Below are positions 2,458-22,021 of a DNA stretch of 64,000 bases, in pieces. The stretch comes from Gammaproteobacteria bacterium (GTDB lineage: Bacteria; Pseudomonadota; Gammaproteobacteria; Steroidobacterales; Foliamicaceae). Each line of letters opens with the position of its first letter. The first letter of the stretch is position 1. The position numbers and the translations under genes are program-made. Where the stretch lies: NCBI GenBank assembly GCA_011523505.1, contig WTGP01000046.1, positions 5,046 through 69,045 of the forward strand. The letters run 5' to 3'. The notes beneath the pieces are model-generated. The model saw only the letters and a program-made list of their open reading frames with translations, was not told the DNA's origin and did no database searches.

Positions 2458-3465
2458 TCAGGCCTGAAGCATGCGCTCCACGGCAAGCCGCGCGCGGTCT
2501 GCGATTTCCGCCGGAACCTCTACCCGCGGCTGAAGTGTTTCCAGTGTGCGCAGGATCTTGGGAAGGGTGATGCGCTTCATGTGCGGACAGAGATTGCACG
2601 GGCGCACGAACTGCACGTCGGGATGTTCCACGGCCACGTTGTCGCTCATCGAGCACTCGGTCACCATGACCACGCGGCGGGGCTTGTTTTCACCCACGTA
2701 GCGAATCATCGCCGAAGTGGAGCCGACGAAATCGGCCTCGTCCAGGACATCGGGCGGACATTCCGGATGGGCGATGACCTGTATGCCGGAGTGCGACCGG
2801 CGATAGGAACGGATTTCATCCGCCGTGAACCGCTCGTGCACTTCGCAGCTCCCTTCCCAGAGAATGATCTCCACGTCGGTCTTGCCGGCCACATAGCGAC
2901 CCAGGTATCCGTCGGGCAGGAAAATCACGCGGTCCGCGCCCAGCGACTCGACGATCTTCACGGCATTCGCCGAAGTGCAGCAGATGTCGGATTCGGCCTT
3001 CACTTCGGCGGAGGTATTGACGTAGGTAACAACCGGAACGCCGGGGTATTTCTGCTTCAGCAGACGCACGTCCTCGCCGGTAATCGCAGCAGCCAGCGAA
3101 CAGCCGGCTTCCAGATCCGGGATCAGCACGGTTTTTTCGGGCGCCAGGATCTTCGATGTCTCGGCCATGAAATGAACGCCGCACATCAGGATCACGCCGG
3201 AGCCGGCCCTGGCGCCCAGGCGGGCCAGTTCGAGCGAATCGCCGGAGAAATCCGCCACGCCGTGGAAAATCTCCGGGGTCTGGTAATTGTGTACGAGGAT
3301 TACGGCATCGCGCTCCTTCTTCAATTCGTTGATGCGGGCGATATACGGCGCATGCACGGGCCATTCCACGTCGGGTATGACGTCGGTCAGGCGGCTGCGG
3401 ATCGCCGCGGTAATCTCCTGCACTCTCGGGGTGTACTCCAATGATCCTGTCGATTGAACCTGCAT
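2458..3465 (-). CDS. nadA: Quinolinate synthase A
   Basis: 335 aa. Motifs [45 protein letters not shown] and VMVTECSM are diagnostic of NadA, including the Fe-S cysteines. Confidence 0.95.
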
Positions 3466-4755: not shown

Positions 4756-7700
4756 ATGAGAGCAAGGGTGCAACCAACTTCGACGGCGTTGGATGGCCTG
4801 CATCCGGCGGTTCGCGAATGGTTTGACGAGTCGTTCGATCGGCCCACGGCGGTTCAGGAAGGCGCCTGGCCCGCCATCGCCGCGGGCCGGCACGCGCTGC
4901 TGGCGGCGCCCACCGGTTCCGGCAAGACACTGGCGGGCTTTCTATCCGTCATCGACGAACTGCTGCGGCGCAGCCTGCGGGACGATCTGCCGCAGCGAAC
5001 CGAAATCGTTTACGTGTCGCCCCTGCGGGCCCTTTCGAACGACGTGCGCCGCAACCTCCGCGCGCCTCTCGCGGGAATCGATCGGCGTCTCGAGGCCCGG
5101 GGCCTGCCGGCCTCGGGAATTACCGCCGGCCTGCGAACCGGGGACAGTACCGCGGCCGACCGTCGCAGGCTGCTCAAGACACCGCCCCACATCCTGGTAA
5201 CCACGCCGGAGTCCCTGTACCTGCTGCTCACTTCGGAAGGCGGCCGGGGGCTGCTCTCGCACGCAGGCACCGTGATCCTGGATGAACTGCACTCGCTTGC
5301 GGGGGGCAAGCGGGGCGCACACCTCACCCTCAGCCTCGAGCGCCTGGAAATGCTGACAGGGCGGCCGTTGCGGCGAATCGGCATGTCGGCCACGCAGCGG
5401 CCGCTGGACCGCATGGCCCGGTTCCTGCTCGGTGCGCGAGAGGACGATTGCGCGATTGTCGATGCCGGCGCCGCGCGCGATCGGGACCTGGCCCTGGAAC
5501 TGCCCGGATCGCCGCTGCAGGCCGTCATGCCGCTGGAAGTCTGGTCGGAGCTCTATGACCGGCTCGCGGATCTCGTGCGCGGTCACGATTCGACGCTGGT
5601 TTTCGTCAATACGCGGCGGCTGTGCGAGCGGGCCGCGCGCCAGCTGAGCGAACGGCTGGGCGAGGACGCGGTCGCTTCCCACCACGGCAGCATGTCCAAG
5701 GACCACCGGGGCGAGGCCGAGCAGCGCCTCAAGCGAGGAAGTCTCAAGGTGCTTGTCGCCACGGCCTCGCTGGAACTGGGTATCGATATCGGCTCCGTGG
5801 ACCTCGTATGCCAGTTGGGTTCTCCGCGCGGAATCTCGCGGTTTTTACAGCGCGTCGGGCGTTCGGGCCACGCCGTCGGCGAGGTCCCCAGGGGCCGCCT
5901 GTTCCCGCTGACCCGTGGCGAACTGGTCGAGAGTCTGGCGCTTCTGAAGGCGGCGGGCAGAAACGAAATCGAGGAAATCCGCATCCCGCCAGGCGCCATG
6001 GACGTGCTGGCGCAGCAGATCGTGGCCGAGGGAGCCTGCGGCGAGAAAAGCGTCGATGAACTGCGCGCGGCGTTTTCACTGGCCTGGCCGTACCGCAAAC
6101 TGGACCGCGAGCGCTTTGCCCGCGTGGCGCGGATGCTGGCGGACGGTTACTCCACGCGGCGCGGGCGCTCCGGCGCCTACCTGCATTTCGACAGCGTGAA
6201 GCGGCTGTTGAGGCCGCGGCGCTCGGCCCGCATCACCGCCCTGACCAATGGCGGGACCATCCCGGACCAGTTTGACTACGACGTGCTGCTCATGCCGTCG
6301 GAAACCCGCATCGGCACGCTGAACGAGGACTTTGCGTTCGAGAGCCTGCCGGGGGACATATTTCAGCTCGGCAACGCCTCCTACCGGATACAGCGGGTCA
6401 CTTCCGGCAAGGTATACGCCGAGGACGCGCATGGGGCTCCGCCCACCATCCCGTTCTGGTTCGGCGAAGCGCCGGGGCGCAGCACGGAACTTTCGGGGCG
6501 GGTCGCGAGACTTCTCGACGGCGTGGAGACGCGTTTGGCCCGGGACGCGGACGCGATTGCCTGGCTTGCCTCCATTCCCGGCGGATCGCACGAGGCCGCC
6601 CGCCAGACGGTCGAGTACCTTGAGGCCGCGCGGGCCACCCTGGAATCGCTGCCGGGCGTGGGGCGCTTCGTGATCGAGCGCTTCCTCGACGAACTGGGCG
6701 ACATGCACGTCGTCATTCATTCGCCGCTGGGCTCCCGCCTCAACCGCGCCTGGGGACTGGCGCTGCGCAAGCGCATCTGCCGGAAGTTCAATATCGAACC
6801 GCAGGCGGCGGCGCTGGACGACAGCATCGTGATTTCGCTGGGTCCGGGGCACAGCTTCCCGTTGAAGGAAATCACCGGCTGGCTGCATTCCTCGACCGCG
6901 CACGAACTCCTGATACAGGCCGTGCTCGACTCGCCGATGTTCCCCACCCGCTGGCGATGGACGGCTTCGACGGCGCTGGCCATACTCCGCAACTGGAAAG
7001 GCGAGCGCCGGCCGGCGCAGTTTCAGCGCGGCGACGCGGAGGACCTCATGGTCGCGCTGTTCCCCGATCTGGTCGCCTGCGCCGAGAACCTCACGGGGGA
7101 CCGCGCGGTCCCCGACCATCCGCTGGTCGACCAGACCCTGGACGATTGCCTGCACGAACTGATGGACGTCGATGGCCTGCTGGCCCTGCTGCGCTCCTTC
7201 GAGCAGGGTCAGGCCGAAGTGCGCTTTGCCGAACCCGCCTCGCCGTCGGTCCTGGCCCAGGAAGTCATTACCGCCAAGCCCTATGCCTTCCTCGACGATG
7301 CGCCGGCCGAGGAGCGCCGCACCCAGGCGATCCGCACCCGCCATCTGCTGGATGTCGAAGACGCCGCAACCCTGGCGCGGCCGGACCCGCAGGCGATCGC
7401 CGAAGTGTGTGCCCAGGCCTGGCCGAACCCGCGCGATGCGGACGAATTGCACGACGCGCTGAACCTGGCGGGATTCCTGACCGAAGCCGAACTGGCGGAT
7501 TTCCCGGATTTTCTGGCGGAACTGACGTCGCAGGGCAGGGCGCTGGCCTTTTCGGCCGGCGACGGCCGGAGGGTCCGGGCCTGCGTGGAACGCCGCGAGG
7601 AACTGGCCACAGCCCTGGCGAAAACGGACGAGGCGGCAACGGCAATTCGTGAACTGCTCCGCAGCCGGCTTGAAGTCCTGGGGCCCGTAACCGCCGCCGA

Positions 7701-8919
7701 ACTGGCCCAGCCTTTGGGGCTGGAAACGGCAGCCGCGGCCGAGGCGCTGGTGGCGCTGGAAGGAGAAGGCTTCGTGGTTCGCGGCCGTTTCCGCACCAGC
7801 GCGGAAGCGGACGGTCCCGAAGAGTGGTGCGAACGCGGCCTGCTGGCGCGAATCCACCGGCGAACGCTGAAATCCCTGCGCCGGCAGATCAAACCGGTCA
7901 GCGCCGCGGAATTCACATCGTTCCTGTTGCATTGGCAGGGGCTTGGTCCCGACCGGCGGCAGGGACCGGAGAGCCTTCGCCTGGCGCTCGACCGACTGGA
8001 AGGCTGCGGCGCCCCGGCGTCGGCCTGGGAAAGCGTGGTGCTGCCGGCGCGGATCGGCGATTTCTCCGCGGCGATGCTGGACCAGGTGCTCGCGTCGGGC
8101 GAATGGCTTTGGAAGCGGACCGAGCCGTTTCCGGGGCGAGCGGGCGGCCGACTGTCCGCCAACACGCCGATAAGCCTGCTCAGGCGCGAATTCTGGGACT
8201 GCTGGCCGTTGGCGCCCGGCCGCATGGAAGGCCTCTCGTTCGGCGCGCGCAAGGTTCTCGAAGTTCTCCGCGAGGGTGGAGCGGACTTCTTCCTCGGCCT
8301 GGTCCGCAACACCGGCATGCTGCGCAGCCAGGTGGAAATGGCGCTGGGAGAACTGGCCGCCGCCGGGCTGGTGACTTCGGACAGCTTTACCGGCCTTCGC
8401 GCACTGATCACTCGGGCCGACAAGCGTCCCCGCTTCGGCGGGCTGCGGGCCCGGATGAGCGGCGTGCAGGCCGGAGGCCGATGGTCCGTACTGCCCGCGC
8501 CTGCCGGCGATGAAGTCAACGGGGAGGACCGAGTCCGGTACCTGGCCGAAGCGATGGTCCGCCGGTACGGAATCGTGTTCCGGGCCCTGCTGGCGCGCGA
8601 CCGCGGGCTGCCGCCATGGCGCGCCTGGCTGCGGGTCTACAGGCGCATGGAGGCCCGGGGCGAACTGCGCGGCGGCCGCTTCGTGGGAGGGTTCAGCGGC
8701 GAGCAGTTTGCCGCTCCCGCCGCGGTGGAGGAACTGCGGTCCATGCGCCGCAGAAACGACTTTGCTGCGCGGATCCGCATCTCCAGCGCGGACCCGGCCA
8801 ATCTGACCGGCGTGTTGTCGCCCCGGCGCATCCCGTCGCAACCGGCGCGGTGGATACGGTACGAAAGCGGAGAGCCCCGAACGGAGGCGGAGCAGGACGC
8901 CGCTGCCGGCGCCTTATAA
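4756..8919 (+). CDS. lhr: Lhr-family large ATP-dependent DEAD/DEAH-box helicase
   Basis: 1387 aa. Motifs: AAPTGSGKTLAGFL (motif I), LDELH (II), MSATQ (III), HHGSMS, QRVGRSGH (VI), followed by a long Lhr-type C-terminal extension. Confidence 0.9.
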   Translation: MRARVQPTSTALDGLHPAVREWFDESFDRPTAVQEGAWPAIAAGRHALLAAPTGSGKTLAGFLSVIDELLRRSLRDDLPQRTEIVYVSPLRALSNDVRRNLRAPLAGIDRRLEARGLPASGITAGLRTGDSTAADRRRLLKTPPHILVTTPESLYLLLTSEGGRGLLSHAGTVILDELHSLAGGKRGAHLTLSLERLEMLTGRPLRRIGMSATQRPLDRMARFLLGAREDDCAIVDAGAARDRDLALELPGSPLQAVMPLEVWSELYDRLADLVRGHDSTLVFVNTRRLCERAARQLSERLGEDAVASHHGSMSKDHRGEAEQRLKRGSLKVLVATASLELGIDIGSVDLVCQLGSPRGISRFLQRVGRSGHAVGEVPRGRLFPLTRGELVESLALLKAAGRNEIEEIRIPPGAMDVLAQQIVAEGACGEKSVDELRAAFSLAWPYRKLDRERFARVARMLADGYSTRRGRSGAYLHFDSVKRLLRPRRSARITALTNGGTIPDQFDYDVLLMPSETRIGTLNEDFAFESLPGDIFQLGNASYRIQRVTSGKVYAEDAHGAPPTIPFWFGEAPGRSTELSGRVARLLDGVETRLARDADAIAWLASIPGGSHEAARQTVEYLEAARATLESLPGVGRFVIERFLDELGDMHVVIHSPLGSRLNRAWGLALRKRICRKFNIEPQAAALDDSIVISLGPGHSFPLKEITGWLHSSTAHELLIQAVLDSPMFPTRWRWTASTALAILRNWKGERRPAQFQRGDAEDLMVALFPDLVACAENLTGDRAVPDHPLVDQTLDDCLHELMDVDGLLALLRSFEQGQAEVRFAEPASPSVLAQEVITAKPYAFLDDAPAEERRTQAIRTRHLLDVEDAATLARPDPQAIAEVCAQAWPNPRDADELHDALNLAGFLTEAELADFPDFLAELTSQGRALAFSAGDGRRVRACVERREELATALAKTDEAATAIRELLRSRLEVLGPVTAAELAQPLGLETAAAAEALVALEGEGFVVRGRFRTSAEADGPEEWCERGLLARIHRRTLKSLRRQIKPVSAAEFTSFLLHWQGLGPDRRQGPESLRLALDRLEGCGAPASAWESVVLPARIGDFSAAMLDQVLASGEWLWKRTEPFPGRAGGRLSANTPISLLRREFWDCWPLAPGRMEGLSFGARKVLEVLREGGADFFLGLVRNTGMLRSQVEMALGELAAAGLVTSDSFTGLRALITRADKRPRFGGLRARMSGVQAGGRWSVLPAPAGDEVNGEDRVRYLAEAMVRRYGIVFRALLARDRGLPPWRAWLRVYRRMEARGELRGGRFVGGFSGEQFAAPAAVEELRSMRRRNDFAARIRISSADPANLTGVLSPRRIPSQPARWIRYESGEPRTEAEQDAAAGAL

Positions 8920-9042
8920 GAAAGTTCCATCGAATCAAAAAGCTCCGTCAACACGACGCGGGCTGCTGCAATATGTGGGCTAGAATCTCGCATCTTGCCC
9001 GGCCGCGCAAAGCCGGGCGGGACCTTTGGACGGGAGGGGAAT

Positions 9043-10611
9043 ATGAGCCAGGAAATTCTTCAGGAACTGTCGGGCCTGCTGGGCGATGAGCATGTGGTGA
9101 CGGACGATGCGGAGCGCCGTTACTTCACGATGGACGTATACAACGCCCGCGAAATGCCGCTGGCAGTGATCCGGCCCGGTACCGTCGAAGAGTTGCAGCA
9201 GGCCGCCCGCATCGCCCTGCGCAACAAGGTGCCACTGGTACCGCGCGGCGGTGGCGCGTCCTACACCGATGGCTATCTTCCGGCGCAGTCGAATTCGCTG
9301 CTTGTGGACACCTCGCGGCTGAACCGCATTGTGGAGATCAACTCCACCGACATGTATGTAACCGTGGAGCCGGCGGTCACCTGGGAGCGCCTGAATGCGG
9401 CACTGGTCAAGGAAAAGCTGCGCACCCCGTTCTGGGGACCGTTTTCGGGGCTGAAGGCCACTGTTGGAGGATCAACCTCGCAGAATTCGGCAAGCATGGG
9501 CACCGGCAACTACGGGCTTTCGGCGGAATCCGTGCTGTCCTTCGACGTGGTTCTTGGCAACGGCGAGTTGCTGCGCACAGGCTCCGCCTCGATCAGTACT
9601 TCAAAACCGTTTTTCCGCTGGTACGGGCCGGACCTGACCGGCTTGTTTACCGGCGACACGGGCGCCATGGGAATCAAGGCGCGCATCACGCTGCGGCTGA
9701 TCCAGCGTCCGCCAAGAACCGGCACGGCATCCTTCGGCTTTGAGTCGTTCGAGGGCATGTCCGGCGGGATGGCGGCCGTGGCGCGATTGGGCGTGGTGGC
9801 TGACAACTACGGTCTGGACCCCAAGCTGCAACAGGGGCAGCTCACCAAGACCAACACTTCCGACGCGGCTCGCGCGGTGTGGAACGTGGCCCGCGATTCC
9901 TCCAATCCGCTCGAAGCGGTTAGCCGGCTGACCCGGATGGCGCTGTCCGGCAAGCGGTTTTTCGGCGGTTTCAGCCATTCCGCGCACTATGTGGTGGAGG
10001 GGCACAGCGCAGCAGAGGTAAAAACCAAGCTCAGGCTGGTGCGTGAAACCATGCGCCCGCATGGAACCGAAATAGCCAATACCGTGCCCACCGTGCTTCG
10101 GTCCATGCCGTTTATTCCCATGTATTCCGTTTTGGGCGTCAATGGTGAGCGCTGGGTGCCGCTGCACGGGATCATGCCGTTTTCGCGCGTGGCGGAATTT
10201 CGCCGCCAGTTGATGAACATGTATGAAGAGAACGCGGCTCGGATGAAGGAATTACGCGTTGATAAAGGTGCGATGTTCATGACCGTGAGCTCCAACGCCT
10301 TCCTGTACGAGCCGGTGTTTTACTGGGAGGACAGCCGTACGGTGTTTCACAAGCGCTTCATGCCGCAGGACTACCTCAAGACCCTGCCCGAACACGCTGA
10401 GAACCCGGAAGGCCGGGCGCTGGTGGCCGAGCTGCGCCAGAAAATCCTGGATATTTTCTGGCAGGTGGGCGCGATCCACCTTCAGGTGGGCAAGACCTAT
10501 CCGTATTTGCGCGGCAGACAGCCGGAAGCGGAAAGGCTGCTGCGTGAATTCAAGGGCGGAGTGGACCCCGACAACCTCATGAACCCCGGCGCGCTCGGCT
10601 TGGGCTCCTAG
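9043..10611 (+). CDS. FAD-binding (PCMH-type, GlcD/vanillyl-alcohol-oxidase-like) oxidoreductase
   Basis: The track ORF starts at 8995. I prefer the ATG at 9043 (MSQEILQEL...), preceded by gggagggga. VIRPGTVEELQQAARIA...VPLVPRGGGASYTDG is the FAD_binding_4 signature. Confidence 0.85.
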   Translation: MSQEILQELSGLLGDEHVVTDDAERRYFTMDVYNAREMPLAVIRPGTVEELQQAARIALRNKVPLVPRGGGASYTDGYLPAQSNSLLVDTSRLNRIVEINSTDMYVTVEPAVTWERLNAALVKEKLRTPFWGPFSGLKATVGGSTSQNSASMGTGNYGLSAESVLSFDVVLGNGELLRTGSASISTSKPFFRWYGPDLTGLFTGDTGAMGIKARITLRLIQRPPRTGTASFGFESFEGMSGGMAAVARLGVVADNYGLDPKLQQGQLTKTNTSDAARAVWNVARDSSNPLEAVSRLTRMALSGKRFFGGFSHSAHYVVEGHSAAEVKTKLRLVRETMRPHGTEIANTVPTVLRSMPFIPMYSVLGVNGERWVPLHGIMPFSRVAEFRRQLMNMYEENAARMKELRVDKGAMFMTVSSNAFLYEPVFYWEDSRTVFHKRFMPQDYLKTLPEHAENPEGRALVAELRQKILDIFWQVGAIHLQVGKTYPYLRGRQPEAERLLREFKGGVDPDNLMNPGALGLGS

Positions 10612-10621
10612 TCCTCCATTG

Positions 10622-12379
10622 ATGCTTCGATCCCTCGCGTTGACGGCTCTGTTTGCCTGCCTGTTTTCGCTGGGCCTCCACGGTCCCGCGGAGGCGGAGA
10701 GCAGCGAGCGGGTGGTGGGGGTGCTGTTCGTGATCCACGGCGGTTCGGAGGACTGGACCGACCGCGGGGCCTTCGACACGGCCGCGCAGCTTTTCTCGTA
10801 CGATCACAACAGCGCCGTCTATCAGCGTTTTCTCTGGGACCCGCGCATCTGGCCGCGCTTCATGGACTTCGGCAACGGGCCCAAGGAAGCCCTGAAGTAT
10901 CGGTTCGAGTACGACCGGATCGACGGGCCGAGCCCCTTCTACGGCATCACTTACTCGCAGATGCGCGCGCTCGAAGAGGCGCTTGGCGCCCGCGAGCAGG
11001 AGCTGGGGGTGCGCTTCGTCGTGGACCTGGCGTCCTGGATGGCGGCGGACCCGAAGAACCACCCCTGGCCCCGCCTCGTTTATGGGCCGGGCAGTCCGCA
11101 AGGCCAGCCACTCACGTATTGCGGGCCGGCGGACGATCCCTGGCCCGGCTGCGATCCGGAACGGCACAACGTGGACGGTCCCATCCCGCGGCTGCTGGAT
11201 CAGGGCGTGACCGAGATCCTGGCCATCGACATGACCGTGGGTGGCGCCCGGTTCTCCAAGACGCATGACGTGGTCCGGACGCTGCGCGCGCGCCTGGCCG
11301 CCGAGGCGGGGGAGGACGGGGAACCGGTTCCATTGCGCTGGCTGAACGACCCCAGGGACCTGATGCGCGATTCGTACCCGGTCGAACCGGCGGGATGGAC
11401 GCGTTCTCTCGGCCCGCCGGTAGCCGACCGCAGCGTGCCGTTGAAGGACGGGCCCAATCCGGTGGTTTCCTCGCCGCTGCTGGCGTTGCTGCACGCCGAG
11501 GGTATCGCCGAGCGGTTCAACCCGGAGGTGGAAGAGGCCGAGACCGGCATTGTGCTCCTCGGCCATGCGCTGCGCCGCTACGACGAGTATTTCGACCCGA
11601 AGATCGATGACACCCTGACGCTGCACCAGACCATAGCGCTGGAATTGCTGCGCCTGTACCCGGAGCTCAAGGAACACAGGATCGTGGGCGCCTGGGCCGG
11701 GGACATGGTCCTGAACGAAGCGCTGACGGACACGCCCGCCGGCGGTTACGAGCGCAGCCGGCCCATGCGCGGCGAGAACCTCGGCTACGCGGCGCTGTAC
11801 GAGCAGCCGGGCGTTCACCCGCAGGGCAAGTGGGGCTACCGTTACTGGGAGGCGCTGGACTATCTGCGTTCCGACGGCGTCGAGCACATCGTCGTGGCGT
11901 TTCCGCAGATCGTGGCCGAATCGGTGCTCAACATGGTCGAGGTGCCCAACCAGATCGGCAAGGAAGTCGGCTACCGCAACTGGCTCTACTACGAAAAGGG
12001 CGATTACGACCGCTACCCGAAGGTGGGGCACCCGTTCGCCGACTACTGGGGCATCTGGGTGAACACGGAGTGCAGGGACGGCGATTCAACGGTCGCCTGC
12101 TGCCTGGAATTGGGTGGCTGCGCCGACGGACGGCCCTATCCGCCGGCACGCCAGACGCCTCCCGACCGGCGGCGCAACGACATGGACCCGTCACTGGGTT
12201 ACGACATACCGGCATTCGGCCATATCGGTTATGACCCGGCCCAGGGCAGCCCGTCGGACGACCGTCCTGTCCAGCAGCAATACCGCGGAACCTGGGCGAT
12301 GTGGCGTCCCCCGAACGACGACCCGCGCATGGGGGAACTGATGGCAAGGTTTATCGTCGAGGCCGTGCAGCAGCGATGA
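10622..12379 (+). CDS. Secreted hypothetical protein with class II chelatase (ferrochelatase/CbiX)-like motifs
   Basis: Signal peptide MLRSLALTALFACLFSLGLHGPAEA. Segments VGVLFVIHGGSEDW, TGIVLLGHALRRYDEYF and VEHIVVAFPQIVAESVLNMVEVPNQIGKE resemble the two lobes of ferrochelatase-like folds, from memory only. It starts 8 nt after the FAD-oxidase stop. ATG at 10622, with TTG at 10619 as an alternative. Confidence 0.7.
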   Translation: MLRSLALTALFACLFSLGLHGPAEAESSERVVGVLFVIHGGSEDWTDRGAFDTAAQLFSYDHNSAVYQRFLWDPRIWPRFMDFGNGPKEALKYRFEYDRIDGPSPFYGITYSQMRALEEALGAREQELGVRFVVDLASWMAADPKNHPWPRLVYGPGSPQGQPLTYCGPADDPWPGCDPERHNVDGPIPRLLDQGVTEILAIDMTVGGARFSKTHDVVRTLRARLAAEAGEDGEPVPLRWLNDPRDLMRDSYPVEPAGWTRSLGPPVADRSVPLKDGPNPVVSSPLLALLHAEGIAERFNPEVEEAETGIVLLGHALRRYDEYFDPKIDDTLTLHQTIALELLRLYPELKEHRIVGAWAGDMVLNEALTDTPAGGYERSRPMRGENLGYAALYEQPGVHPQGKWGYRYWEALDYLRSDGVEHIVVAFPQIVAESVLNMVEVPNQIGKEVGYRNWLYYEKGDYDRYPKVGHPFADYWGIWVNTECRDGDSTVACCLELGGCADGRPYPPARQTPPDRRRNDMDPSLGYDIPAFGHIGYDPAQGSPSDDRPVQQQYRGTWAMWRPPNDDPRMGELMARFIVEAVQQR

Positions 12380-13209
12380 CAAATCAAACGGGCCTGAGCC
12401 GCCGCGAATTGCTGGCCGGGGCCGGAAGTCTGGCGGTCCTGGGCGCGCCCTTCAGCGCCCTGGCGGCGGGCGATTCGGCGCCTGAAATCAAGCTGGCGAC
12501 GCCGCGCGACAACCTACTGGCCCTGGTGCGCATCCAGGCGAGCCTGCGCGAGGAAGACGTGCCCTGGTGGTACAGCGGCATCATCTACGGCGCGGAAGAC
12601 GGCAAGGCGCCGCGTCTCCTGTTCGCTTTCGAAGGCATGGAGATGTACTGGATGCGCCACCTCGGTCAGGAGGAGTTCGAGCTGATCGGCCACACCGTAT
12701 CATTCCTCAAGGACGGCCAGACAGGCGAATGGCTGCGCGAATGGAGGAATCCCTACACCGGCGAACTGCTGGAAGTGCCGGCGGCGACGCAAGGCGGAGG
12801 CGCCGGGCGCGGCTTCAACTACTCCACCAGGGGAATACGCCCGACACTGTTCGTCGACCAAATGCCGGAACGGCCGCCCGCCTACCGGATCCTGTCGGGC
12901 GGAGGACGCATCTGGCTCACGAAGGAAACCGAGTACCCGCCCGGCATGGCCCAGCCCCGCCTGCAGCGGCAGACCATGAACTGTTCACTGGAGGAATTCA
13001 CCGATCCCGCCAGGGAACGCCTGAACACCCAGTTTGCCTCCACCGTGTTCATGCCGTGGCGCAACTGGATGAACATGGGCGACCGGCCCGGTCATCTGAT
13101 CTGGCACGCGGCGGGGCTGAAGCTGGACTCGGTGGATTCGCTGCCGGCCAACTATCGCGCCCGCCTCGACGCCGAATATCCCGACAAACTGACCGCCCGC
13201 CCCGTTTAG
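12376..13209 (+). CDS. Tat-exported DUF1838-like protein
   Basis: I prefer the ATG at 12376 (ATGA overlap with the upstream stop), giving MTNQTGLSRRELLAGAGSLAVLGAPFSALAA, a twin-arginine signal. WRNPYTGELLEV and the surrounding pattern match my recollection of DUF1838. Confidence 0.7.
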   Translation: MTNQTGLSRRELLAGAGSLAVLGAPFSALAAGDSAPEIKLATPRDNLLALVRIQASLREEDVPWWYSGIIYGAEDGKAPRLLFAFEGMEMYWMRHLGQEEFELIGHTVSFLKDGQTGEWLREWRNPYTGELLEVPAATQGGGAGRGFNYSTRGIRPTLFVDQMPERPPAYRILSGGGRIWLTKETEYPPGMAQPRLQRQTMNCSLEEFTDPARERLNTQFASTVFMPWRNWMNMGDRPGHLIWHAAGLKLDSVDSLPANYRARLDAEYPDKLTARPV

Positions 13210-13233
13210 ACGGGCTGCAGACGAAAGTTCGAC

Positions 13234-14064
13234 CTACTCCGGCCAGCCTTCGCCGGCGGCGCCCGCCTGCAGGGCGCGAACCTCGTCCAGGTCCGCGGGC
13301 GGCCGCAGCCACATGGGCACCTCCTTCCTGGCCCACTCAAGCAACGCCGGCGGGAACTCGTCATGGCTCTCGACCCGCCAGGACAGCAGGTGATAGATCG
13401 CGTTCCCTTCTCCGGCGAACGGCGGCAGCGCACCGTAGCGCTGCCAGCTCAATTGGTGGGGCTCATCCGCGACATCAGCCGAGTGTATAAAGAAGTCGTA
13501 GTTTTCCCAGGCCTGGTAGCGGTTGCCGCCGGGCACCGGGAAATCCAGGAAAACCGAAGCGGTAATCGCGGTCGTGCCCCGGCCCAGCTTGCGCACCTGC
13601 ATGCCGTTTCGGGACTTGATTCTCTGGACGCTTTCGCCGACTCCCTGCTCGACTTCTCCGTAGATGCGCCCGTCCCTTATGCGGTAACGGATGAGCTGGT
13701 AGGGATAGGCGATCGGCAGCACCGGCCGGCCCTTGTACTCGGTAAGGATTTCACCGCTCACCGGATCGGTATATGTGTACGTCTTTCGTGTCAGGTGAAT
13801 GACGGTACCGTCCGGATCGTCGGGCCAGATCACCGTGGAGCTGTCAAAACCGATCATTCCCAGCAGCTTCTCGCCGGAGGGATAGTCATAAACGCCGCCC
13901 TCCGAAACCCAGTGGACCGGGGCGCCGGTGCCCGCCCGCGCATCGACCCAGGTCCGCAGCACTTCCGGCGCCGCAGTGCGGGATACCGGTGGTTCGCCGG
14001 CGGCGCCGCACGGTGCAATAACGGCCGTGCAGGCGCCGAGAAAGAGTGCAGGAATGATTCGCAT
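13234..14064 (-). CDS. Secreted (possibly lipoprotein) DUF1838-like paralogue
   Basis: 276 aa. N-terminus MRIIPALFLGACTAV has an LGAC lipobox-like motif. YTDPVSGEILTEYKGRPV parallels the WRNPYTGELLEV segment of the neighbouring gene. SD aggaga lies upstream. Confidence 0.65.
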   Translation of the reverse strand: MRIIPALFLGACTAVIAPCGAAGEPPVSRTAAPEVLRTWVDARAGTGAPVHWVSEGGVYDYPSGEKLLGMIGFDSSTVIWPDDPDGTVIHLTRKTYTYTDPVSGEILTEYKGRPVLPIAYPYQLIRYRIRDGRIYGEVEQGVGESVQRIKSRNGMQVRKLGRGTTAITASVFLDFPVPGGNRYQAWENYDFFIHSADVADEPHQLSWQRYGALPPFAGEGNAIYHLLSWRVESHDEFPPALLEWARKEVPMWLRPPADLDEVRALQAGAAGEGWPE

Positions 14065-14161: not shown

Positions 14162-15442
14162 CTAGTCGAACAGCCCCGGCAGCGCCAGCGAGATGGAGGG
14201 AACCGCGGTCACCAGCAAAAGCACAAGGAGCATCGCGCAATAGAAGGGCCAGATGGAACGCAGGCTCTTCTCTATCGTAATGCCGCCTACCGCGCAGCCC
14301 ACGAACAGGACCGCGCCCACGGGGGGCGTGACCAGGCCGATGCCGAGATTCAGGATCATCACGACGCCGAATTGCACCGGGTCCATGCCGAGCTGGGTGG
14401 CCACCGGCAGGAAGATCGGCGTGGTGATGATGATCAGCGGCGCCATGTCCATGAACGTACCCAGCATCAGCAGGATCAGGTTGATGATCAGGAACAGCAC
14501 CAGCGGGTTCTCGCTGATGCCGAGAAGCGCCTCCGACATTCGCAAAGGCACTTCCGCGACAGCCATCAGCCAGCCGAAGGCCGAGGCCGCGGCAATGATC
14601 AGCATCACGATGGCCGTGGTCCGGGCGGCGTTGCGGGTCGCGGTGACGAACTTCGACCAGTTCAGGCTGCGATATACGAAAGCGGCAATAACGACCGTAT
14701 AGACGACGGCAATCGCCGACGATTCGGTGGCCGTGAACACGCCCGACAATATCCCGCCCACGATGATGATCGCAGAAAGCAGCCCGGGCGCGGCCTGCAT
14801 GAAGGCAATCAGGAGTGGGCGCCACCCCGGGAAAGAGCCGCCCGGATAACCTCGCCTGACGGCAACCAGCCAGGTCGCGGCCATCAGGGCGAGACCCAGC
14901 AGGATTCCCGGCAGCACGCCGGCAAGGAAAAGAGACACGATGGACACGCTGCCGCCCGCCGCGATCGAGTAGATGATCATGTTGTGCGAGGGCGGAATGA
15001 GCAGACCGGTCGCGGAGCCCGTCGCGGTGACGTTAACAGCGAAATCCCGCGTATAACCCTTCTCGCGCATGATCGGGGTCAAGGCCGATCCCATCGCGGA
15101 AACGCTGGCCACGGCCGAACCCGAGACCGCGCCGAACATCATGCAGGAGAGCACGCTCACCTGCCCCAGTCCGCCCCGGGCCCTGCCCAGTATCGACTCC
15201 GCCAGGCGCACCAGCTTCGCCGCAATCCCCGACTGGTTCATGAGCTCCCCGGCGAAAATGAAGAACGGAATGGCGAGCAGCGCGAACACGTCGATGCCGG
15301 CCGCCATGCGCTGGAAGGCCACGATCAGGGGAATGTCCAGATAAAGCAGCGTGGCCAGCGCCGAGAGGCCGAGACAGAAGGCAACGGGTACTCCGAGGGC
15401 CAGCAGGACCACGAAGGTACCGAACAGGATGGCTAGTTCCAT
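14162..15442 (-). CDS. dctM: TRAP transporter large permease
   Basis: The track ORF extends to 15700. The real start is the ATG at 15442 (MELAILFGTFVVLLALGVPVAFCLGL), overlapping the dctQ stop. The protein is polytopic and hydrophobic with a typical DctM N-terminus. Confidence 0.9.
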   Translation of the reverse strand: MELAILFGTFVVLLALGVPVAFCLGLSALATLLYLDIPLIVAFQRMAAGIDVFALLAIPFFIFAGELMNQSGIAAKLVRLAESILGRARGGLGQVSVLSCMMFGAVSGSAVASVSAMGSALTPIMREKGYTRDFAVNVTATGSATGLLIPPSHNMIIYSIAAGGSVSIVSLFLAGVLPGILLGLALMAATWLVAVRRGYPGGSFPGWRPLLIAFMQAAPGLLSAIIIVGGILSGVFTATESSAIAVVYTVVIAAFVYRSLNWSKFVTATRNAARTTAIVMLIIAAASAFGWLMAVAEVPLRMSEALLGISENPLVLFLIINLILLMLGTFMDMAPLIIITTPIFLPVATQLGMDPVQFGVVMILNLGIGLVTPPVGAVLFVGCAVGGITIEKSLRSIWPFYCAMLLVLLLVTAVPSISLALPGLFD

Positions 15443-15939
15443 GGGTCGGCGTCCCTCCTTCCGAGAAAAACGTTCACGCAGTTGACGCAGGCGAACAGCG
15501 CCATGAGTCCGCCGCACACGACGAACGGCCAGTAGGCCACCGACCGGGATATGCCCAGCGTGGGGATGATGTGCGTTGCCGTGTAGTCGACCAGCGCCAT
15601 GCCGTTGACGGCCATGGCGGCGCCGAAAGCCAGGATCAGCGCCTGCCCGAATACGAACGCGGCCCGTCTGTATTGAATCGGAAGCCTGGTCACGAGCCAC
15701 CGGAAACCCAGGTGGAACTTCTCATACACACCCACGGCCGCGGCCAGCAGCACAAAGCTGACCATCACGATGAGGGCGGCCGCTTCGGACCACGGCGGGC
15801 TGGCGTTCAGCACGTAGCGAGCGAATACCTGCCAGGCAATGACCAGCGTCATCACGACCAGTCCGGCGGCTGCGGCCTTCAGAACCAATCCGGCGAGCCT
15901 CCCGGCTGCGCGGTCCAATCGTTGCTCAAGGCGCCGCAC
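15433..15939 (-). CDS. dctQ: TRAP transporter small permease
   Basis: 168 aa with four hydrophobic segments, positioned between dctP and dctM with overlapping stops and starts. Confidence 0.85.
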   Translation of the reverse strand: MRRLEQRLDRAAGRLAGLVLKAAAAGLVVMTLVIAWQVFARYVLNASPPWSEAAALIVMVSFVLLAAAVGVYEKFHLGFRWLVTRLPIQYRRAAFVFGQALILAFGAAMAVNGMALVDYTATHIIPTLGISRSVAYWPFVVCGGLMALFACVNCVNVFLGRRDADPWN

Positions 15940-16939
15940 GGATTCTCTCCACCAGGTCCTTGAGCTTCGGGTCCTTCAGGTACTGCTCGTACAGCGGCTG
16001 CATCGCGTCCATGAAGGGTTGCTTGTCGACATTGTCGACAATCTGCACGCCGGCTTCCACCATGGCGTTGCGGGACATCGTGACCCGCGCGTCCCAGAGT
16101 TCGCGCATCACCGGCACCGATTCCTTGGCCGCCCGGCGAACCAGGGCCTGGTCCTCGGGGGAAAGTTTTCGCCAGCGGTAGCGCGACATGAGCAGCACTT
16201 CGGGCACCATCACGTGTTGGGTAACGCTGTAGTGCGGCGCCACTTCGAAGTGCCGGGAGGACTCGTAGGACGGCCAGTTGTTTTCCGCCGCTTCGATCGT
16301 TCCCAGCGCCAGCGATTCATACACCTGTCCGAACCCCATGGGCGTGGCGTTGCCGCCCAGAGTCGAGATCATGTCCACGAAGACTTCCGAATTCATCACC
16401 CGGACTTTCATACCCCGAATGTCGGCCGGCGAGTGGATCGGACGGAGGTTGTTGTACATGCTGCGCGCGCCGGCGTCGTAGTAGCAAAGCCCCACCAGCC
16501 CGTGGGGCTCCAGGGCGGCAAGGATTTCATCGCCGATCGGACCGTCGAGGACGCGCCGCATGTGCTCGGTGGAACGAAACAGGAACGGCAGCGAATACAC
16601 GCCGGTCTCGGGCGCGATCGAATTGAGCGGCGCGATGCTGGTGCGGCTGATGTCGATGCCGCCGAAGATCGTCATCTCGAGCATGTCGCGCTCGTCGCCC
16701 AACTGGGCCCCCGGGTAGATTTTCACCCGGATCCGCCCCCCGGTTTCGCTCTCCAGCCGGTCCGCCATCGCCTCCATGCCGCGAACGGTGGGATAACCGG
16801 CATCCTGAATGTCGGCGGCGCGCAGCCGGATGGATTCCTGCGCGCCGGCGGACGGACCCGCAAGCGCCGGAAGCGCGGCGAGCAGGAGAACCGCTATCGG
16901 GCGCAGGCCCGGCGCCACGTTGAACACGCCTCTTCGCAT
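15926..16939 (-). CDS. dctP: TRAP transporter substrate-binding protein (DctP family)
   Basis: 337 aa with a signal peptide. It shows the DctP-family pattern (IRLRAADIQ..., GGIDISRTS, MKVRVMNSEVF, EAAENNW). Its start overlaps the kduD stop (TGATG). Confidence 0.9.
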   Translation of the reverse strand: MRRGVFNVAPGLRPIAVLLLAALPALAGPSAGAQESIRLRAADIQDAGYPTVRGMEAMADRLESETGGRIRVKIYPGAQLGDERDMLEMTIFGGIDISRTSIAPLNSIAPETGVYSLPFLFRSTEHMRRVLDGPIGDEILAALEPHGLVGLCYYDAGARSMYNNLRPIHSPADIRGMKVRVMNSEVFVDMISTLGGNATPMGFGQVYESLALGTIEAAENNWPSYESSRHFEVAPHYSVTQHVMVPEVLLMSRYRWRKLSPEDQALVRRAAKESVPVMRELWDARVTMSRNAMVEAGVQIVDNVDKQPFMDAMQPLYEQYLKDPKLKDLVERIRAAP

Positions 16940-17703
16940 CAGCGCCCCATCCAGCCGCCGTCAACGAGCAGGATGCTGCCGTTCACGTAGTCAGAGGCCC
17001 GGGATGCCAGGAACACGGCCGCGCCCTTGAAGTCGTCCGGCGTTCCCCAGCGGCCCTGCGGGATCCGTTCCAGGATCGCACCGTACCGTTGCGCATCGTT
17101 GCGAAGTGCTTCGGTGTTGTCGGTCTCGACGTAACCGGGCGCAATGCCGTTGACGTTCAAGCCTCTGCCCGCCCATTCATTCGAGAGCGCCATTATGAGT
17201 TGTTTGAGCCCGCCCTTGCTGGCTGCGTAACCGGGAACCGTGATTCCGCCCTGGAACGAAAGCAGCGAGGCCGTGAAGATGATCTTCCCCGAGCCTCTTT
17301 CGACCATGTCGCGGCCCAGTTCGCGGCTCAGGATGAACTGGGCGCTCAGGTTCACCTCCAGCACCCGGTCCCAGCAGTCGTCGCCATGCTCCGCGACAGG
17401 CGCCCGCCCAATCGTCCCGGCGTTGTTCACGAGCACATCCGGCGCGCCGTGCCGTTCCCGGACATCGGCAATGAACTCGTAAAGCCCGGCCCGCTGGCCG
17501 AAGTCGCATTGATAGGCGTTGAAGGACCCGCCGGCCTTGCCTACGGCCTCTTCAACCTCCGATCCGGACGGTTCGAGCGTGGCCGAAACGCCGATGATGT
17601 CCGCGCCCGCCTCGGCAAGCCCGATAGCAATTGATTTGCCAATGCCGCGCTTGCACCCCGTCACCAGAGCGGTCTTGCCGTCAAGATCGAACAGATCGCT
17701 CAT
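16939..17703 (-). CDS. kduD: 2-dehydro-3-deoxy-D-gluconate 5-dehydrogenase-like SDR
   Basis: 254 aa. Motifs TGCKRGIGKSIA, NNAG, YAASKGG, and C-terminal GRWGTPDD...YVNGSILLVDGGWMGR, typical of KduD. Confidence 0.8.
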   Translation of the reverse strand: MSDLFDLDGKTALVTGCKRGIGKSIAIGLAEAGADIIGVSATLEPSGSEVEEAVGKAGGSFNAYQCDFGQRAGLYEFIADVRERHGAPDVLVNNAGTIGRAPVAEHGDDCWDRVLEVNLSAQFILSRELGRDMVERGSGKIIFTASLLSFQGGITVPGYAASKGGLKQLIMALSNEWAGRGLNVNGIAPGYVETDNTEALRNDAQRYGAILERIPQGRWGTPDDFKGAAVFLASRASDYVNGSILLVDGGWMGR

Positions 17704-17886
17704 TGCGGCTGGATCCTCCGTTGCGCGCGAATGTTATGTCTCGCGAAGGCATTTGTGAGACACAAGATTGGAATTATGCTTCATACTGCAGGCCATAACC
17801 ACTGGAGTCTGATGGGTCGTAATTAGGGGACTGATGGTGCGCGCGAAGGCGAAGAACGCCTGGTCAATTCTCGATAATCGATATTA

Positions 17887-17899
17887 TTGGTATTACCAA
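17887..17899. promoter_or_regulatory. Perfect 13-bp palindrome TTGGTATTACCAA (FadR/GntR-type t.GT-N-AC.a operator candidate)
   Basis: Read directly from the sequence. It lies in the AT-rich 281-bp divergent region between kduD-dctPQM and the TBDR-gntR-PL6-PL17-SDR operon, which encodes a FadR-type GntR regulator. Confidence 0.5.
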
Positions 17900-17984
17900 T
17901 TTGGCATGAAAGGACATACAGAAAGGTCATATTACTTTACTATTTTCGGTATATACTCGTGGGGAAACTGCTGGAGGAATCGAC

Positions 17985-20900
17985 ATGCGGGCAAACACGA
18001 CCGGGACTCATATTGGGCTGCGGATGCTGGCTTCGATTTGCACGGGGCTGGCAGCGCCGCTGATTGCGGCTTCGGTGCTGGCGCAGGATGCGCCGGACGG
18101 CGAAGACGCGCTGAGCGAAGCGCCTATAGAAGAAATCGTCGTAAAAGGAGTGCGGCGAACGATCCAGGATTCCATCGACCTCAAGCGGAATTCCGTCACA
18201 ATCGTTGACGGACTCAGTGCCGAGGAGATCGGCGCACTGCCGGCCCTGTCAATCGGTGAGGCGCTGGAGACCGTTACAGGTGCTGCGACTCATCGCGAGA
18301 ACGGCGGCGCTACCGAGGTTGCCATCCGGGGATTGGGGCCCTACCTGGGCAATACGGTCGTCAATTTTCGCGAGTCCACCAACGGAAGCGGCAATCGCGC
18401 GGTCAACTTCAGTATCTTCCCGTCCGAATTGTTCAATGCCGTTTCCATTCACAAAACTCAGACTGCGAGCTATCTTGAAGGCGCCGTCAGCGGTCAGGTT
18501 CACTTGAGCACCCGTCGGCCGATCGAGTACGGTGAACAACGCGCGCAATTCAGCCTCAAGAGCTCGGCGCATCCCGACGACAGCAACATCATTGGCCAGG
18601 ACGAGCGTGGTTACCGCGCCACCGCCAGCTACATCAATTCATGGGAATTTGAAGGTTTGGGCAAGATCGGCATATCCATCGGAGGGCAATTGCGCGACGA
18701 TTCCAATCCGGAAGCCGAGGCCACTCATACGACCGGCGGCGGGCGGTTCGAAGCCTGTGTGCTGGAATCATTCGATTCCACGGCGCAGCCGCTTGACACA
18801 TCCGGCCGCTGCGATGAAAACGCGGGCGACCCCGACTTGAGCAATGACCAGCTTCAGGACCTGATCGATTCCAATCCCAATTACAACAGTGTTTCGGATA
18901 TTCCATTCGCCTACATAGCTCGCGATCGCCAGTTCCGCCGCAATACAACGGACGATGACCGCGAGGCCCTGTTCGGGGTGATCCAGTGGCAGCCCAATGA
19001 CCGTCTGGATTTCATGCTCGATTTTCAGCAGTCCGAGCGGGATCAAAAGGAACTTCGCCAGGACCTTCAGTTCGGAGGAACCCAGAATAACCTGCGGGAC
19101 GTCGTTTCCAACCCGCGCACCGGGCTTCTGGAGAGTTTCGTCGCGGATACCGATATCCGATCCAAGACCACGGACTTCGTGCGCTTTGAAGAATATGAAG
19201 GCGCCGGCCTTAACATTGCCTGGCAGGCCACCGACGCGCTCGAAGTTTCATTCGATGCGGCGTTCGCGGACACCCGGCGTGTCGAGACGGATGTGGAGGT
19301 TCGACTGGCCGCGAACGAAGTGCTGATCACGGAACCCGACCGCGTTTCCAGCAGGGAAGAGTTCTGGGTCCGTTTCGATGTGGATGTGCCCGGCACGGAT
19401 GGACTTACGCTGCCGACGGTTCTCAGCACGGACGGCAGTAGTTCGCGCGATCCTGCATCGCTGCTGGATTTCGACATCAACGATCCCCGTTACTTTACCG
19501 CCCGCGACCGCGCGCAAGTTCGAGCCAGGCAGCAGATTCGCGAGCACACGATTGATGCCTTCAGGCTGGATCTGTCCTGGGACACCGACCTGGGTATTGT
19601 CAGCAATCTCGAGGGCGGCGTGCGCTTTTCTTCCCTTGAGTACCGCACCTTCGGCGGCAATCGCAATCGAGCCGGATTCAGCCTGTTTGACGACGAGGAT
19701 CTCGACGGCGTGCCGCACGGGAGCTCCAACACGCCCGAAGCCCGGGCGGTGGTCTTCAATGCCGCCAACAATTGCGGACAGGGCAGCTTCCCGGAGCCTG
19801 GTTTCCTTTCGGAATCCAGGGGCGGCAACGATCTCATCACGTTCGCGCACGGCATTGGCACCGGAACCGGATGGGCGACATTCGATCATGGCTGTTTGCT
19901 GGATGAGCTGCTTGCAAACTACGGCGGCAGGTCCGCGATCGGCTTCCAGAACGGCATCCAGACCAACAGCATCGACCTGACCGAAGATGTGACGGCGATC
20001 TACTTGCAGGCAAACTACGAATCACAAATGTCCGGCAGACCGGTGCGGGGTAATTTTGGCGTGCGCGTCGTGCGATCCGATGTCGATTCGATCGGTTACC
20101 GGACCCCGCTCACCGTAACGCAGGAAGAGGGCTTGTACTTTGTCGAGGAAGTGCCGGGCGCCGAGTACGAAGAGGTATTGCAAACCAATAGCTATACGGA
20201 AGTCCTGCCCAGCCTCACCTTCATCATGGATCTCAATGACGACTGGCTCTTCCGGGCTGGAGTGTTCAGAGGCCTTTCGCGTCCGGACCCCCACTCCTAC
20301 GGCAATAGTCGCTCCATCAACACCAACGACTCCGACGATCCGGACTCCGGCTACGCCAGCCTGGAAGAAGCAGTGCATGGCATCAGCTCGCCTGGCAACC
20401 CGAAATTGCAAGCCCTGCCGTCCTGGAATGTTGACGTGAGCCTGGAATGGTATGCCAACGAAGACACATTGTTGGCGGCCGGCGTCTATTGGAAGCAATT
20501 TCAGGGCGCTTTTGAAAACGCCTACCAGCCGGAAGACATTCTGATTGACGGAAACGTGGTGGCCGGCTCTGTGAGGACAACGCAGGTTTCCGATGACAAG
20601 AGCGACCTCATTGGTCTTGAAATCACCGCTACGCACGCCTTCGACTATCTGCCCGGCTTTTTGAGCGGCTTCGGCGCGAAGTTCAGCTACAACTACGCGG
20701 ATTCCGATTTCGAATTCGAGGATGGCCACGGCGGCGACGGCACAGCCTATGATGCGGACGGCAATCCGATTCGGCTACTGGGCCTTTTGCCGCCGGCCGG
20801 CTTATGGGGCCTGTCGCGCCATACCAGCGCAACGCAGCTTTACTGGCAGAATGATCGCTTCAGCGCGCAGGCGATTTTCAAGGCGCGTTCCCGGTACTTC

Positions 20901-21125: not shown

Positions 21126-21148
21126 ATCCAACGGCTTCGCCGAAAAAT

Positions 21149-22013: not shown

Positions 22014-22021
22014 CCGCTACC

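Follow-up and report, generated by a model that had tools for sequence, protein, structure and literature searches.

A gene cluster for a flavoprotein, a predicted chelatase-fold exported protein and DUF1838 proteins in a gammaproteobacterial contig

Gene layout at the locus

The 64,000-nucleotide stretch of gammaproteobacterial contig WTGP01000046.1 analyzed here, referred to as the window, carries four closely packed genes between positions 9043 and 14064. They encode a flavoprotein without a signal peptide, an exported protein that we call P586, a DUF1838 protein with a twin-arginine (Tat) signal that we call DUFa, and a DUF1838-like exported protein of very divergent sequence on the opposite strand. 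Genes 1-3 are tentatively read as encoding an exported redox or ligand-handling module with P586 and DUFa at its core. All four open reading frames (ORFs) were confirmed from the ORF list and by direct reading of the junctions, and the features are as follows.

9043-10611, + strand: gene 1, flavoprotein, 522 amino acids, FAD_binding_4
10622 (ATG) or 10619 (TTG) to 12379, + strand: gene 2, P586, 585 or 586 amino acids
10622-10696, + strand: predicted Sec signal peptide of P586, MLRSLALTALFACLFSLGLHGPAEA, read from the sequence and the family alignment
12376-13209, + strand: gene 3, DUFa, 277 amino acids, PF08894
12376-12465, + strand: twin-arginine signal peptide of DUFa, MTNQTGLSRRELLAGAGSLAVLGAPFSALA, read from the sequence, with an approximate cleavage site
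13234-14064, - strand: gene 4, divergent DUF1838-like exported protein, 276 amino acids, convergent on DUFa

The start codon of gene 1 (ATG) has GGGAGGGG immediately upstream, and the gene ends with TAG at 10609-10611. An initial annotation of this DNA had given 8 nt between the flavoprotein gene and the gene for the secreted protein, a minor error, as the gap is 10 nt to the ATG start of P586 or 7 nt to the TTG start. In other respects its account of the layout agreed with the sequence: the four genes lie at the coordinates it gave, the TGA of P586 and the ATG of DUFa overlap as ATGA, and the stop codons of the two convergent DUF1838 genes are 24 nt apart (13210-13233). Scans of the DNA returned 0 promoters and terminator candidates at the level of shuffled sequence, and the predicted fold of the 24-nt convergent spacer was uninformative (z-score 0.87). 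Fragments of all four genes were covered by sponge metatranscriptome contigs from related strains (90-97% identical). The window sequence was also recovered near-identically in sponge metagenome runs, and the closest genomes were sponge-associated gammaproteobacterial metagenome-assembled genomes. Some of the close relatives are labelled Candidatus Foliamicus, a name for which a literature search under 'Foliamicus' found no match.

The exported proteins P586 and DUFa and their neighbourhoods

P586 belongs to an undescribed family of exported proteins and has a ferrochelatase (class II chelatase) fold in its predicted structure. Its signal is of the Sec type (MLRSLALTALFACLFSLGLHGPAEA), and by sequence and alignment the homologues carry either Sec or lipoprotein (…AGCS) signals. 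These homologues number more than 400, all unnamed or 'hypothetical', among them P0077 in Oceanicoccus sagamiensis. No Pfam family exceeded its cut-off, no NCBIfam family was matched, and in the PDB neither the single sequence nor a 20-sequence profile matched anything, chelatases included. The Pfam ferrochelatase model (PF00762) gave a sub-threshold match of 15.8 bits against a cut-off of 27, confined to residues 70-133. In the AlphaFold2 model (predicted local distance difference test score, pLDDT, 80; predicted template-modelling score 0.83), two Rossmann-like alpha/beta domains form a cleft. When this model was compared with the PDB by Foldseek, all 41 matches at E <= 1e-3 were to ferrochelatase/CpfC (E 2.5e-7 to 9e-5), with template-modelling (TM) scores normalized to the target of 0.52-0.73; the periplasmic CbiK of Desulfovibrio vulgaris was a weaker match (E 1e-2). 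The label 'chelatase-like' in the initial annotation thus has the support of the fold comparison, although in Pfam the resemblance stays below threshold.

Residues invariant in 81 family sequences comprise H40, H316, H423, six cysteines and many arginines and lysines; the six cysteines may form three periplasmic disulfides. His40 and His316 each end the first strand of one domain in the AlphaFold2 model. In ferrochelatases the catalytic His opens the C-terminal domain (H183 in Bacillus subtilis, H263 in human), and the catalytic Glu lies in a D-H/C-x-E-T-L-x-E helix (E264 in B. subtilis, E343 in human). His316, conserved in 100% of the sequences (n = 81) and closing the first strand of domain 2, may by its place in the topology correspond to the catalytic His. 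For the Glu, hhalign of the P586 family profile with Escherichia coli HemH set 'AESVLNMVE' on 'AADCLETLEE', a weak alignment (probability 12%, E 0.0025) that places Leu437 at the catalytic Glu and Glu441 on the second Glu of HemH. From this alignment, the canonical catalytic Glu seems to have been lost. Because it is apparently lost and sequence similarity is lacking, P586 is taken to have the fold of a ferrochelatase and not to be a canonical one.

The surroundings of P586 relatives were examined in 80 genome loci, in which homologues of the window proteins were identified by phmmer on six-frame ORFs and the remaining ORFs were clustered by BLAST. The order flavoprotein-P586-DUFa was found in 22 of the 80 loci: 15 close relatives and seven distant Woeseia-like loci, several labelled Woeseia or Woeseiaceae, whose P586 is ~45% identical. 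In an eighth Woeseia-like locus (L078), which has P586-DUFa, the 3.5 kb upstream hold no gene for the flavoprotein. Where the flavoprotein is encoded, as in the other seven, a double alpha/beta-hydrolase gene stands before it. The gap from flavoprotein to P586 ranged from -8 to +39 nt in both clades with the triad, and that from P586 to DUFa from -4 to +44 nt in most loci and 82-184 nt in three. These spacings cover the starts that could be placed, as automatic start choice failed at some triad loci. In a neighbour-joining tree of P586 the two triad clades were not sisters. The tight coupling of genes 1-3 noted earlier is a feature of order and spacing that the 15 close relatives and the seven Woeseia-like loci share, and the neighbourhood does recur, partially and in modules, and not as a fixed set of four genes. 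The chelatase-like gene is absent from many FAD-DUF1838 clusters (L087, L088, L147, L092 and others).

All told, a DUF1838 gene lay within 7 kb of P586 in 32 of the 80 loci, 16 of which were close relatives. Outside the clades with the triad, this proximity was seen in eight Rhodospirillaceae loci and in the metagenome locus L138. In 12 loci, which form one P586 clade, the gene directly downstream of P586 encoded HiPIP, an iron-sulfur protein of high potential (PF01355, E 1.6e-14). In these loci (L032, L033, L037, L039, L040, L054, L056, L061, L064, L069, L075 and L076) the HiPIP carries a Tat signal, and its gene, at ~8790-9140 in most of them, often overlaps that of P586. A literature search found nothing on a periplasmic ferrochelatase-like protein with HiPIP. 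Other neighbours of P586 were major facilitator superfamily (MFS) transporters, a Rieske VanA-like oxygenase, a luciferase-like monooxygenase and secreted alpha/beta hydrolases, and some loci combined the Rieske VanA-like oxygenase with a secreted hydrolase matching Chlorophyllase/PAF-AH. No hem or cbi genes were present among the P586 neighbours in the 80 loci.

DUFa matched PF08894 (DUF1838) at 78.6 bits against a cut-off of 25. As the initial annotation had proposed, it has a predicted Tat signal: the twin-arginine motif SRRELL is followed by a hydrophobic stretch (SRRELLAGAGSLAVLGA), and R9 and R10 are kept in at least 90% of 26 homologues. In the window clade the motif reads SRRxLLAGAG, and the Woeseia-like clade has LRRDFLLGLG. 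The AlphaFold2 model of DUFa is all-beta (pLDDT 85.5), and Foldseek against the PDB found no true structural neighbour for it (best TM 0.29); matches to a haemophore, LolA and PsbO were set aside as generic beta-sheet resemblance. PDB sequence and profile searches gave no usable match for either DUF1838 protein. That none of the three exported proteins could be given a function holds up, as none falls in a characterized family by Pfam, NCBIfam or PDB searches, and a literature search found DUF1838 in two papers, both of them on azinothricin-type biosynthetic gene clusters.

With a DUFa profile, 55 metagenome loci were collected, in which the following arrangements were found; DUFb denotes a second DUF1838 protein.

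FAD-DUFa-Fer2_2-cytochrome c (FAD, the flavin adenine dinucleotide protein): 6 metagenome loci, three with an LEH/SnoaL gene upstream (with a Tat signal in L087)
DUFa-DUFb-Fer2_2-cytochrome c: 2 metagenome loci
DUFa-Fer2_2, with or without cytochrome c: 5 metagenome loci
DUFa-DUFb: 5 metagenome loci
P586-DUFa-DUFb…Fer2_2: 1 metagenome locus
DUFa alone: many metagenome loci

Fer2/Fer2_2 comes after DUFa, usually with cytochrome c behind it, in 13 of the 55 metagenome loci and in L087, L088 and L147; the Fer2_2 gene stands either directly next to DUFa or past the second DUF1838 gene. L087 and L088, which were collected as flavoprotein-homologue loci, have FAD-DUFa-DUFb and then Fer2_2 and cytochrome c, and L147 has the same after two small genes. 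The Fer2_2 proteins (2x[2Fe-2S]) have no signal peptide, the cytochrome has a lipoprotein signal, and DUFa and DUFb both have Tat signals. A cytochrome c is encoded with the unit in relatives L087, L088, L092, L101, L107, L109, L115, L117 and L147. Around the DUF1838-Fer2_2-cytochrome c units, neither the Pfam tables of called genes (L086-L088 and L147) nor a Pfam scan of the ORFs flanking the L106 unit showed a molybdopterin subunit. In these loci the units thus differ from the xanthine-oxidase family, in which Fer2_2 goes with a molybdopterin large subunit.

Units of the form DUF1838 (Tat), optionally a further DUF1838 (Tat, lipobox), Fer2/Fer2_2 and cytochrome c were seen at L087:8720-11753 and L088:3558-6548 and in L096, L098, L106 and L147. 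A 2x[2Fe-2S] 'small subunit' that apparently partners DUF1838 rather than a molybdenum enzyme would be unusual. At L104:8565-11176 a 707-residue ORF stands beside an opposite-strand Fer2_2 gene near a DUFa-DUFb pair and may be part of a canonical molybdenum-enzyme pair, so that not every nearby Fer2_2 gene belongs to a DUF1838 unit. Phosphate genes (PhoB/PhoR, PhoU, PstS, PhoD, CHAD, PAP2, low-molecular-weight phosphatase and histidine phosphatase) recur beside DUF1838 units (L086, L087, L088, L096, L106, L138 and L147), which may reflect shared regulation or mere synteny.

Gene 4, the flavoprotein and the flanks

Gene 4 matched PF08894 at 38.7 bits (cut-off 25) and is 21% identical to DUFa. 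Its orthologues are confined to the window clade, being present in 11 of 16 close relatives and missing in five. The LGAC motif from which a lipoprotein had been suggested is present; its Cys is missing in six of the 11 orthologues (no LGAC Cys in L005, L006, L008, L013 and L019, and a different start in L007). As the Cys is not conserved, the lipoprotein assignment was rejected and the signal is taken to be an ordinary Sec signal. The subfamily is a rare and very divergent branch of DUF1838, with 152 representatives at E <= 1e-3 among 1.84 billion. Two long proteins of the representative library, P0385 and P0391, have low-complexity or coiled-coil N-terminal regions and a C-terminal domain ~36% identical to gene 4; they look eukaryotic, and the gene 4 subfamily may be common to eukaryotes and this sponge symbiont clade. 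A single secreted protein from that library, P0490, fuses a CpeT/CpcT bilin-lyase-family domain (E 6e-33) to DUF1838 (E 7e-48). Homology of DUF1838 and CpeT was rejected because hhalign of DUF1838 with the CpeT domain of P0490 was negative, and the fusion is treated as an anecdote.

The flavoprotein belongs to the vanillyl-alcohol oxidase (VAO)/p-cresol methylhydroxylase (PCMH) superfamily (PF01565 FAD_binding_4, E 1.2e-34, 119.4 bits against a cut-off of 26.4), with FAD_binding_4 as its N-terminal half and a diverged FAD-oxidase_C-like C-terminal half. No signal peptide was seen in its sequence. Scores fell far under the NCBIfam equivalog cut-offs for GlcD, GlcE, Dld, YdiJ and DprE1 (TIGR00387, 113.8 against 567.9; PRK11230, 89.6 against 897; Dld, 32.2 against 391), and identification as GlcD glycolate oxidase or D-lactate dehydrogenase was rejected on these grounds. 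Matches in the PDB were confined to residues 1-250, the best being glycolate oxidase, D-lactate dehydrogenase and p-cresol methylhydroxylase (E 3e-25 to 4e-21), with vanillyl-alcohol oxidase and eugenol oxidase also among the relatives. The more than 2800 homologues are named just 'FAD-binding oxidoreductase'.

An Lhr helicase gene lies upstream of the flavoprotein gene in the window, in L087, L089/L090 and L147-L150 and at the P0339 locus, that is, in every homologue locus that reaches far enough upstream. When five homologue loci were picked regardless of DUF1838, Lhr was upstream in all five and DUF1838 adjoined in one. As Lhr is the most constant neighbour of the flavoprotein, the association of the flavoprotein with the exported proteins is the least secure link of the cluster, and their adjacency may partly be inherited synteny. 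Between the Lhr-type helicase gene (4756-8919 in the window) and the flavoprotein gene stand from zero to a few variable genes, a synteny that is unusually stable for no obvious functional reason. Upstream of Lhr, the window carries a response regulator with a SpoIIE/PP2C phosphatase domain (1225-2385, - strand) and a NadA quinolinate synthase (2458-3465, - strand), the latter forming a divergent pair with an NrtR-type winged-helix regulator (3563-4477, + strand).

Downstream of gene 4, positions 14162-27204 hold a 13-kb utilization island of uronate/alginate or glycosaminoglycan type, with the following genes.

14162-16939, - strand: tripartite ATP-independent periplasmic (TRAP) transporter DctMQP, assigned from translations and not by family search
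16939-17703: KduD-like short-chain dehydrogenase/reductase (SDR)
17985-21125: TonB-dependent receptor
21122-21895: GntR/FCD regulator
21956-24223: Chondroitinase_B/PL6-like lyase
24220-26439: Alginate_lyase plus Heparinase_II/III_C (PL17-like) lyase
26443-27204: SDR

Those relatives whose loci extend far enough lack the island at this position, and in them the genes for an acyl-CoA dehydrogenase and a Cys/Met pyridoxal phosphate enzyme (27256-30220 in the window) come after the cluster, directly in most. Since these downstream genes adjoin the cluster in relatives without the island, the island is regarded as an insertion and the cluster as ending at 14064; the TRAP transporter, KduD-like SDR and TonB receptor were accordingly rejected as cluster members.

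Interpretation and comparison with known systems

Our preferred, though tentative, reading is that genes 1-3 would form one transcription unit whose exported core is Sec-exported P586 together with the Tat-exported beta-protein DUFa. The term 'redox' was chosen because elsewhere P586 is translationally coupled to HiPIP, and DUFa is followed by Fer2_2 and a lipoprotein c-type cytochrome. As Fe-S assembly is cytoplasmic and the apparent acceptor periplasmic, we infer that the Fer2_2 protein is exported in complex with the DUF1838 protein. DUFa might then form a complex that is folded and cofactor-loaded in the cytoplasm and carry signal-less partners over the membrane on its Tat signal, the passengers being the Fe-S protein in relatives and possibly the flavoprotein in the window. 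In the modelled inter-domain cleft, at His40 and His316, P586 may bind either a metal or a ligand that is anionic and possibly tetrapyrrole-like. The sponge-symbiont cluster would be a reduced form, from which the dedicated carriers (Fe-S protein and cytochrome) have gone and to which another DUF1838 protein, of very divergent sequence, has been added.

Precedents exist for export of this kind. In one, a FAD catalytic subunit that has no signal of its own, and whose partner is a cytochrome c subunit, is exported by a small subunit with a Tat signal (PMC6719666); in another, the three subunits of PaoABC cross together as a hitchhiker complex (PMC4273604). By analogy, the Tat signal of DUFa probably exports a pre-assembled complex. 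The flavoprotein could be a Tat passenger or a cytoplasmic enzyme; the cytoplasmic location given to it initially is an assumption, since signal-less proteins can ride on the Tat signal of a partner (PMC6719666, PMC4273604). The initial annotation had also favoured a dedicated pathway over random neighbours, and this stands in part: the link between P586 and DUF1838 is good, that of the flavoprotein is weaker, and gene 4 is an optional extra. The recurrence of the neighbourhood, and the position of the exported proteins outside characterized families in HMM and structure searches, are in keeping with that proposal.

Several observations weigh against an exported redox module. Most DUFa loci stand alone, and most P586 loci have neither the flavoprotein nor DUF1838 nearby. 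No homologue of HiPIP, Fer2_2 or cytochrome c, nor of DUFb, occurs anywhere in the 64-kb window, so that the redox interpretation rests on relatives. No His is conserved throughout all three DUF1838 subfamilies, which argues against a common catalytic metal site. The metatranscriptome contigs, which are short, come from related strains and could include DNA, bridge no gene junction. The flavoprotein adjoins Lhr in every homologue locus examined, usually with no DUF1838 beside it, and a wider block (Lhr … FAD … SDRs … DUF1838 … CHAD/PhoBR) is common to many of the gammaproteobacterial loci, so that adjacency inside that group may partly reflect descent. Taken further, this last point becomes an explanation of its own, by which the genes are neighbours mostly by descent: the flavoprotein would be resident beside Lhr, the P586 and DUF1838 genes would encode independent envelope proteins that landed there, and co-transcription would not mean a shared pathway. 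Besides the constancy of Lhr and the patchy adjacency of DUF1838, the coming and going of gene 4 in close relatives and the uronate island, which shows that the region accepts insertions, speak for this explanation. We consider it rather unlikely, because the very tight coupling persists between clades whose P586 proteins are ~45% identical, because P586 and DUF1838 co-occur in Alphaproteobacteria that have neither Lhr nor the flavoprotein beside them, and because the proximity of DUF1838 to P586 in the genome loci looks far above chance, judged by assumed typical copy numbers.

A similarly doubtful alternative is an accessory catabolic cassette, in which the exported proteins would process an ester, aromatic or terpenoid-like compound in the periplasm and a cytoplasmic GlcD/VAO-type flavoprotein would oxidize the imported product. 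The recurrent neighbours of P586, DUF1838 and the flavoprotein fit such a role, as they include alpha/beta hydrolases, the Rieske VanA-like oxygenase, the luciferase-like monooxygenase, MFS transporters, Tat-signal LEH/SnoaL proteins and SDRs, and so do the solved structures to which the flavoprotein is related (p-cresol methylhydroxylase, vanillyl-alcohol oxidase and eugenol oxidase). None of these catabolic partners lies beside the cluster in the window, however, and the partner sets vary by lineage, while HiPIP and Fer2_2 with cytochrome c suggest electron transfer and not hydrolysis; nor is the chelatase fold known to act in organic catabolism. Less probable still is periplasmic tetrapyrrole handling, with P586 as a chelatase, dechelatase or binder of haem, a porphyrin or a chlorophyll derivative, DUF1838 binding or shuttling the ligand and the flavoprotein oxidizing the product, as a salvage or degradation route that would suit the symbiont of a filter feeder. 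In structure P586 comes closest to ferrochelatases and coproporphyrin ferrochelatases, with the periplasmic haem-binding CbiK weaker, invariant His316 sits at the strand end of the ferrochelatase catalytic His, and invariant Arg and Lys residues could hold propionates. The top Foldseek match of DUFa was a haemophore, which at its TM score is not a real structural match, and the CpeT/CpcT-DUF1838 fusion is one case of two domains that are not homologous. P586 has no sequence-level similarity to any chelatase and has Leu437 at the catalytic Glu position in the weak hhalign match, and the conserved cluster contains no haem transporter or TonB receptor. The Chlorophyllase/PAF-AH-matching hydrolase found with a Rieske VanA-like oxygenase at some P586 loci would suit chlorophyll breakdown, but the Rieske protein matches VanA_C, with no match to the Pfam PaO domain reported. 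In its most far-reaching form, which we regard as very improbable, P586 would found a periplasmic class-II-chelatase-fold family of enzymes for environmental tetrapyrroles (such as haem or chlorophyll breakdown products that arrive with the food filtered by the sponge), whose metal it would take out or put in, and DUF1838 would be a new tetrapyrrole- or cofactor-binding beta-fold on which Fe-S and cytochrome carriers dock, the two together forming an undescribed salvage or degradation route.

Whichever reading holds, P586 defines a sizeable family with a predicted chelatase fold in an unexpected compartment, one with no Pfam model. For DUF1838, the neighbourhoods give the first contextual clues, namely predicted Tat export, pairing with 2x[2Fe-2S] and cytochrome c proteins in units near which no molybdenum subunit was found, and an association with the chelatase-like protein. 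Should the redox or hitchhiker reading be true, periplasmic dehydrogenases would have in DUF1838 a novel type of subunit, serving Tat targeting or catalysis; the tetrapyrrole reading, if true, would open up the turnover of haem or chlorophyll in the bacterial periplasm, both in marine sediments and in sponge symbioses. Were both readings wrong, the cluster would be a clean example of conserved synteny (Lhr-flavoprotein) mimicking a functional operon.

Among known systems, P586 resembles ferrochelatase/CpfC (HemH, PF00762) in its predicted two-domain fold (Foldseek E 2.5e-7, TM to target up to 0.73) and in an invariant His that ends the first strand of the second domain, an equivalence drawn from topology; like the periplasmic CbiK of D. 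vulgaris, it is predicted to be exported. It differs from ferrochelatase in being ~270 residues longer, nearly twice the length, with a Cys-rich C-terminal extension, in lacking sequence or profile similarity, in apparently having Leu at the catalytic Glu position (by a weak alignment) and in carrying a Sec or lipoprotein signal. In the genome it keeps company with HiPIP, DUF1838, oxygenases, hydrolases and MFS transporters and not with genes of haem or cobalamin biosynthesis. Genes 3 and 4 both score above the gathering cut-off of DUF1838 (PF08894), gene 4 as a rare, very divergent branch.

The cluster shares with the gamma-alpha-beta FAD-glucose dehydrogenase of Burkholderia cepacia (PMC6719666) and with PaoABC (PMC4273604) a signal-less FAD protein beside a sole Tat-signal carrier. 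Its relatives complete a hitchhiker-like set with a c-type cytochrome and a signal-less Fe-S protein, whereas the window lacks the cytochrome. Unlike that of the B. cepacia enzyme, the window flavoprotein is of VAO/GlcD type and not of glucose-methanol-choline type, and DUF1838 is an all-beta protein of ~250 residues where the dehydrogenase has a small helical gamma subunit (PMC6719666). The cluster also lacks a molybdopterin subunit, and its flavoprotein would be exported by analogy with these systems. With the p-cresol methylhydroxylase flavocytochromes the likeness lies in the N-terminal FAD domain of gene 1 (E 4e-21) and in the cytochrome c gene that relatives have in the same operon-like unit; the FAD-binding half alone aligns, the substrate domain being unrelated in sequence, and the cytochrome is two or three genes off in relatives and absent from the window. 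The cluster as a whole is explained by no characterized system, and its parts resemble known kinds: the chelatase fold, VAO flavoproteins and Tat-exported redox complexes.

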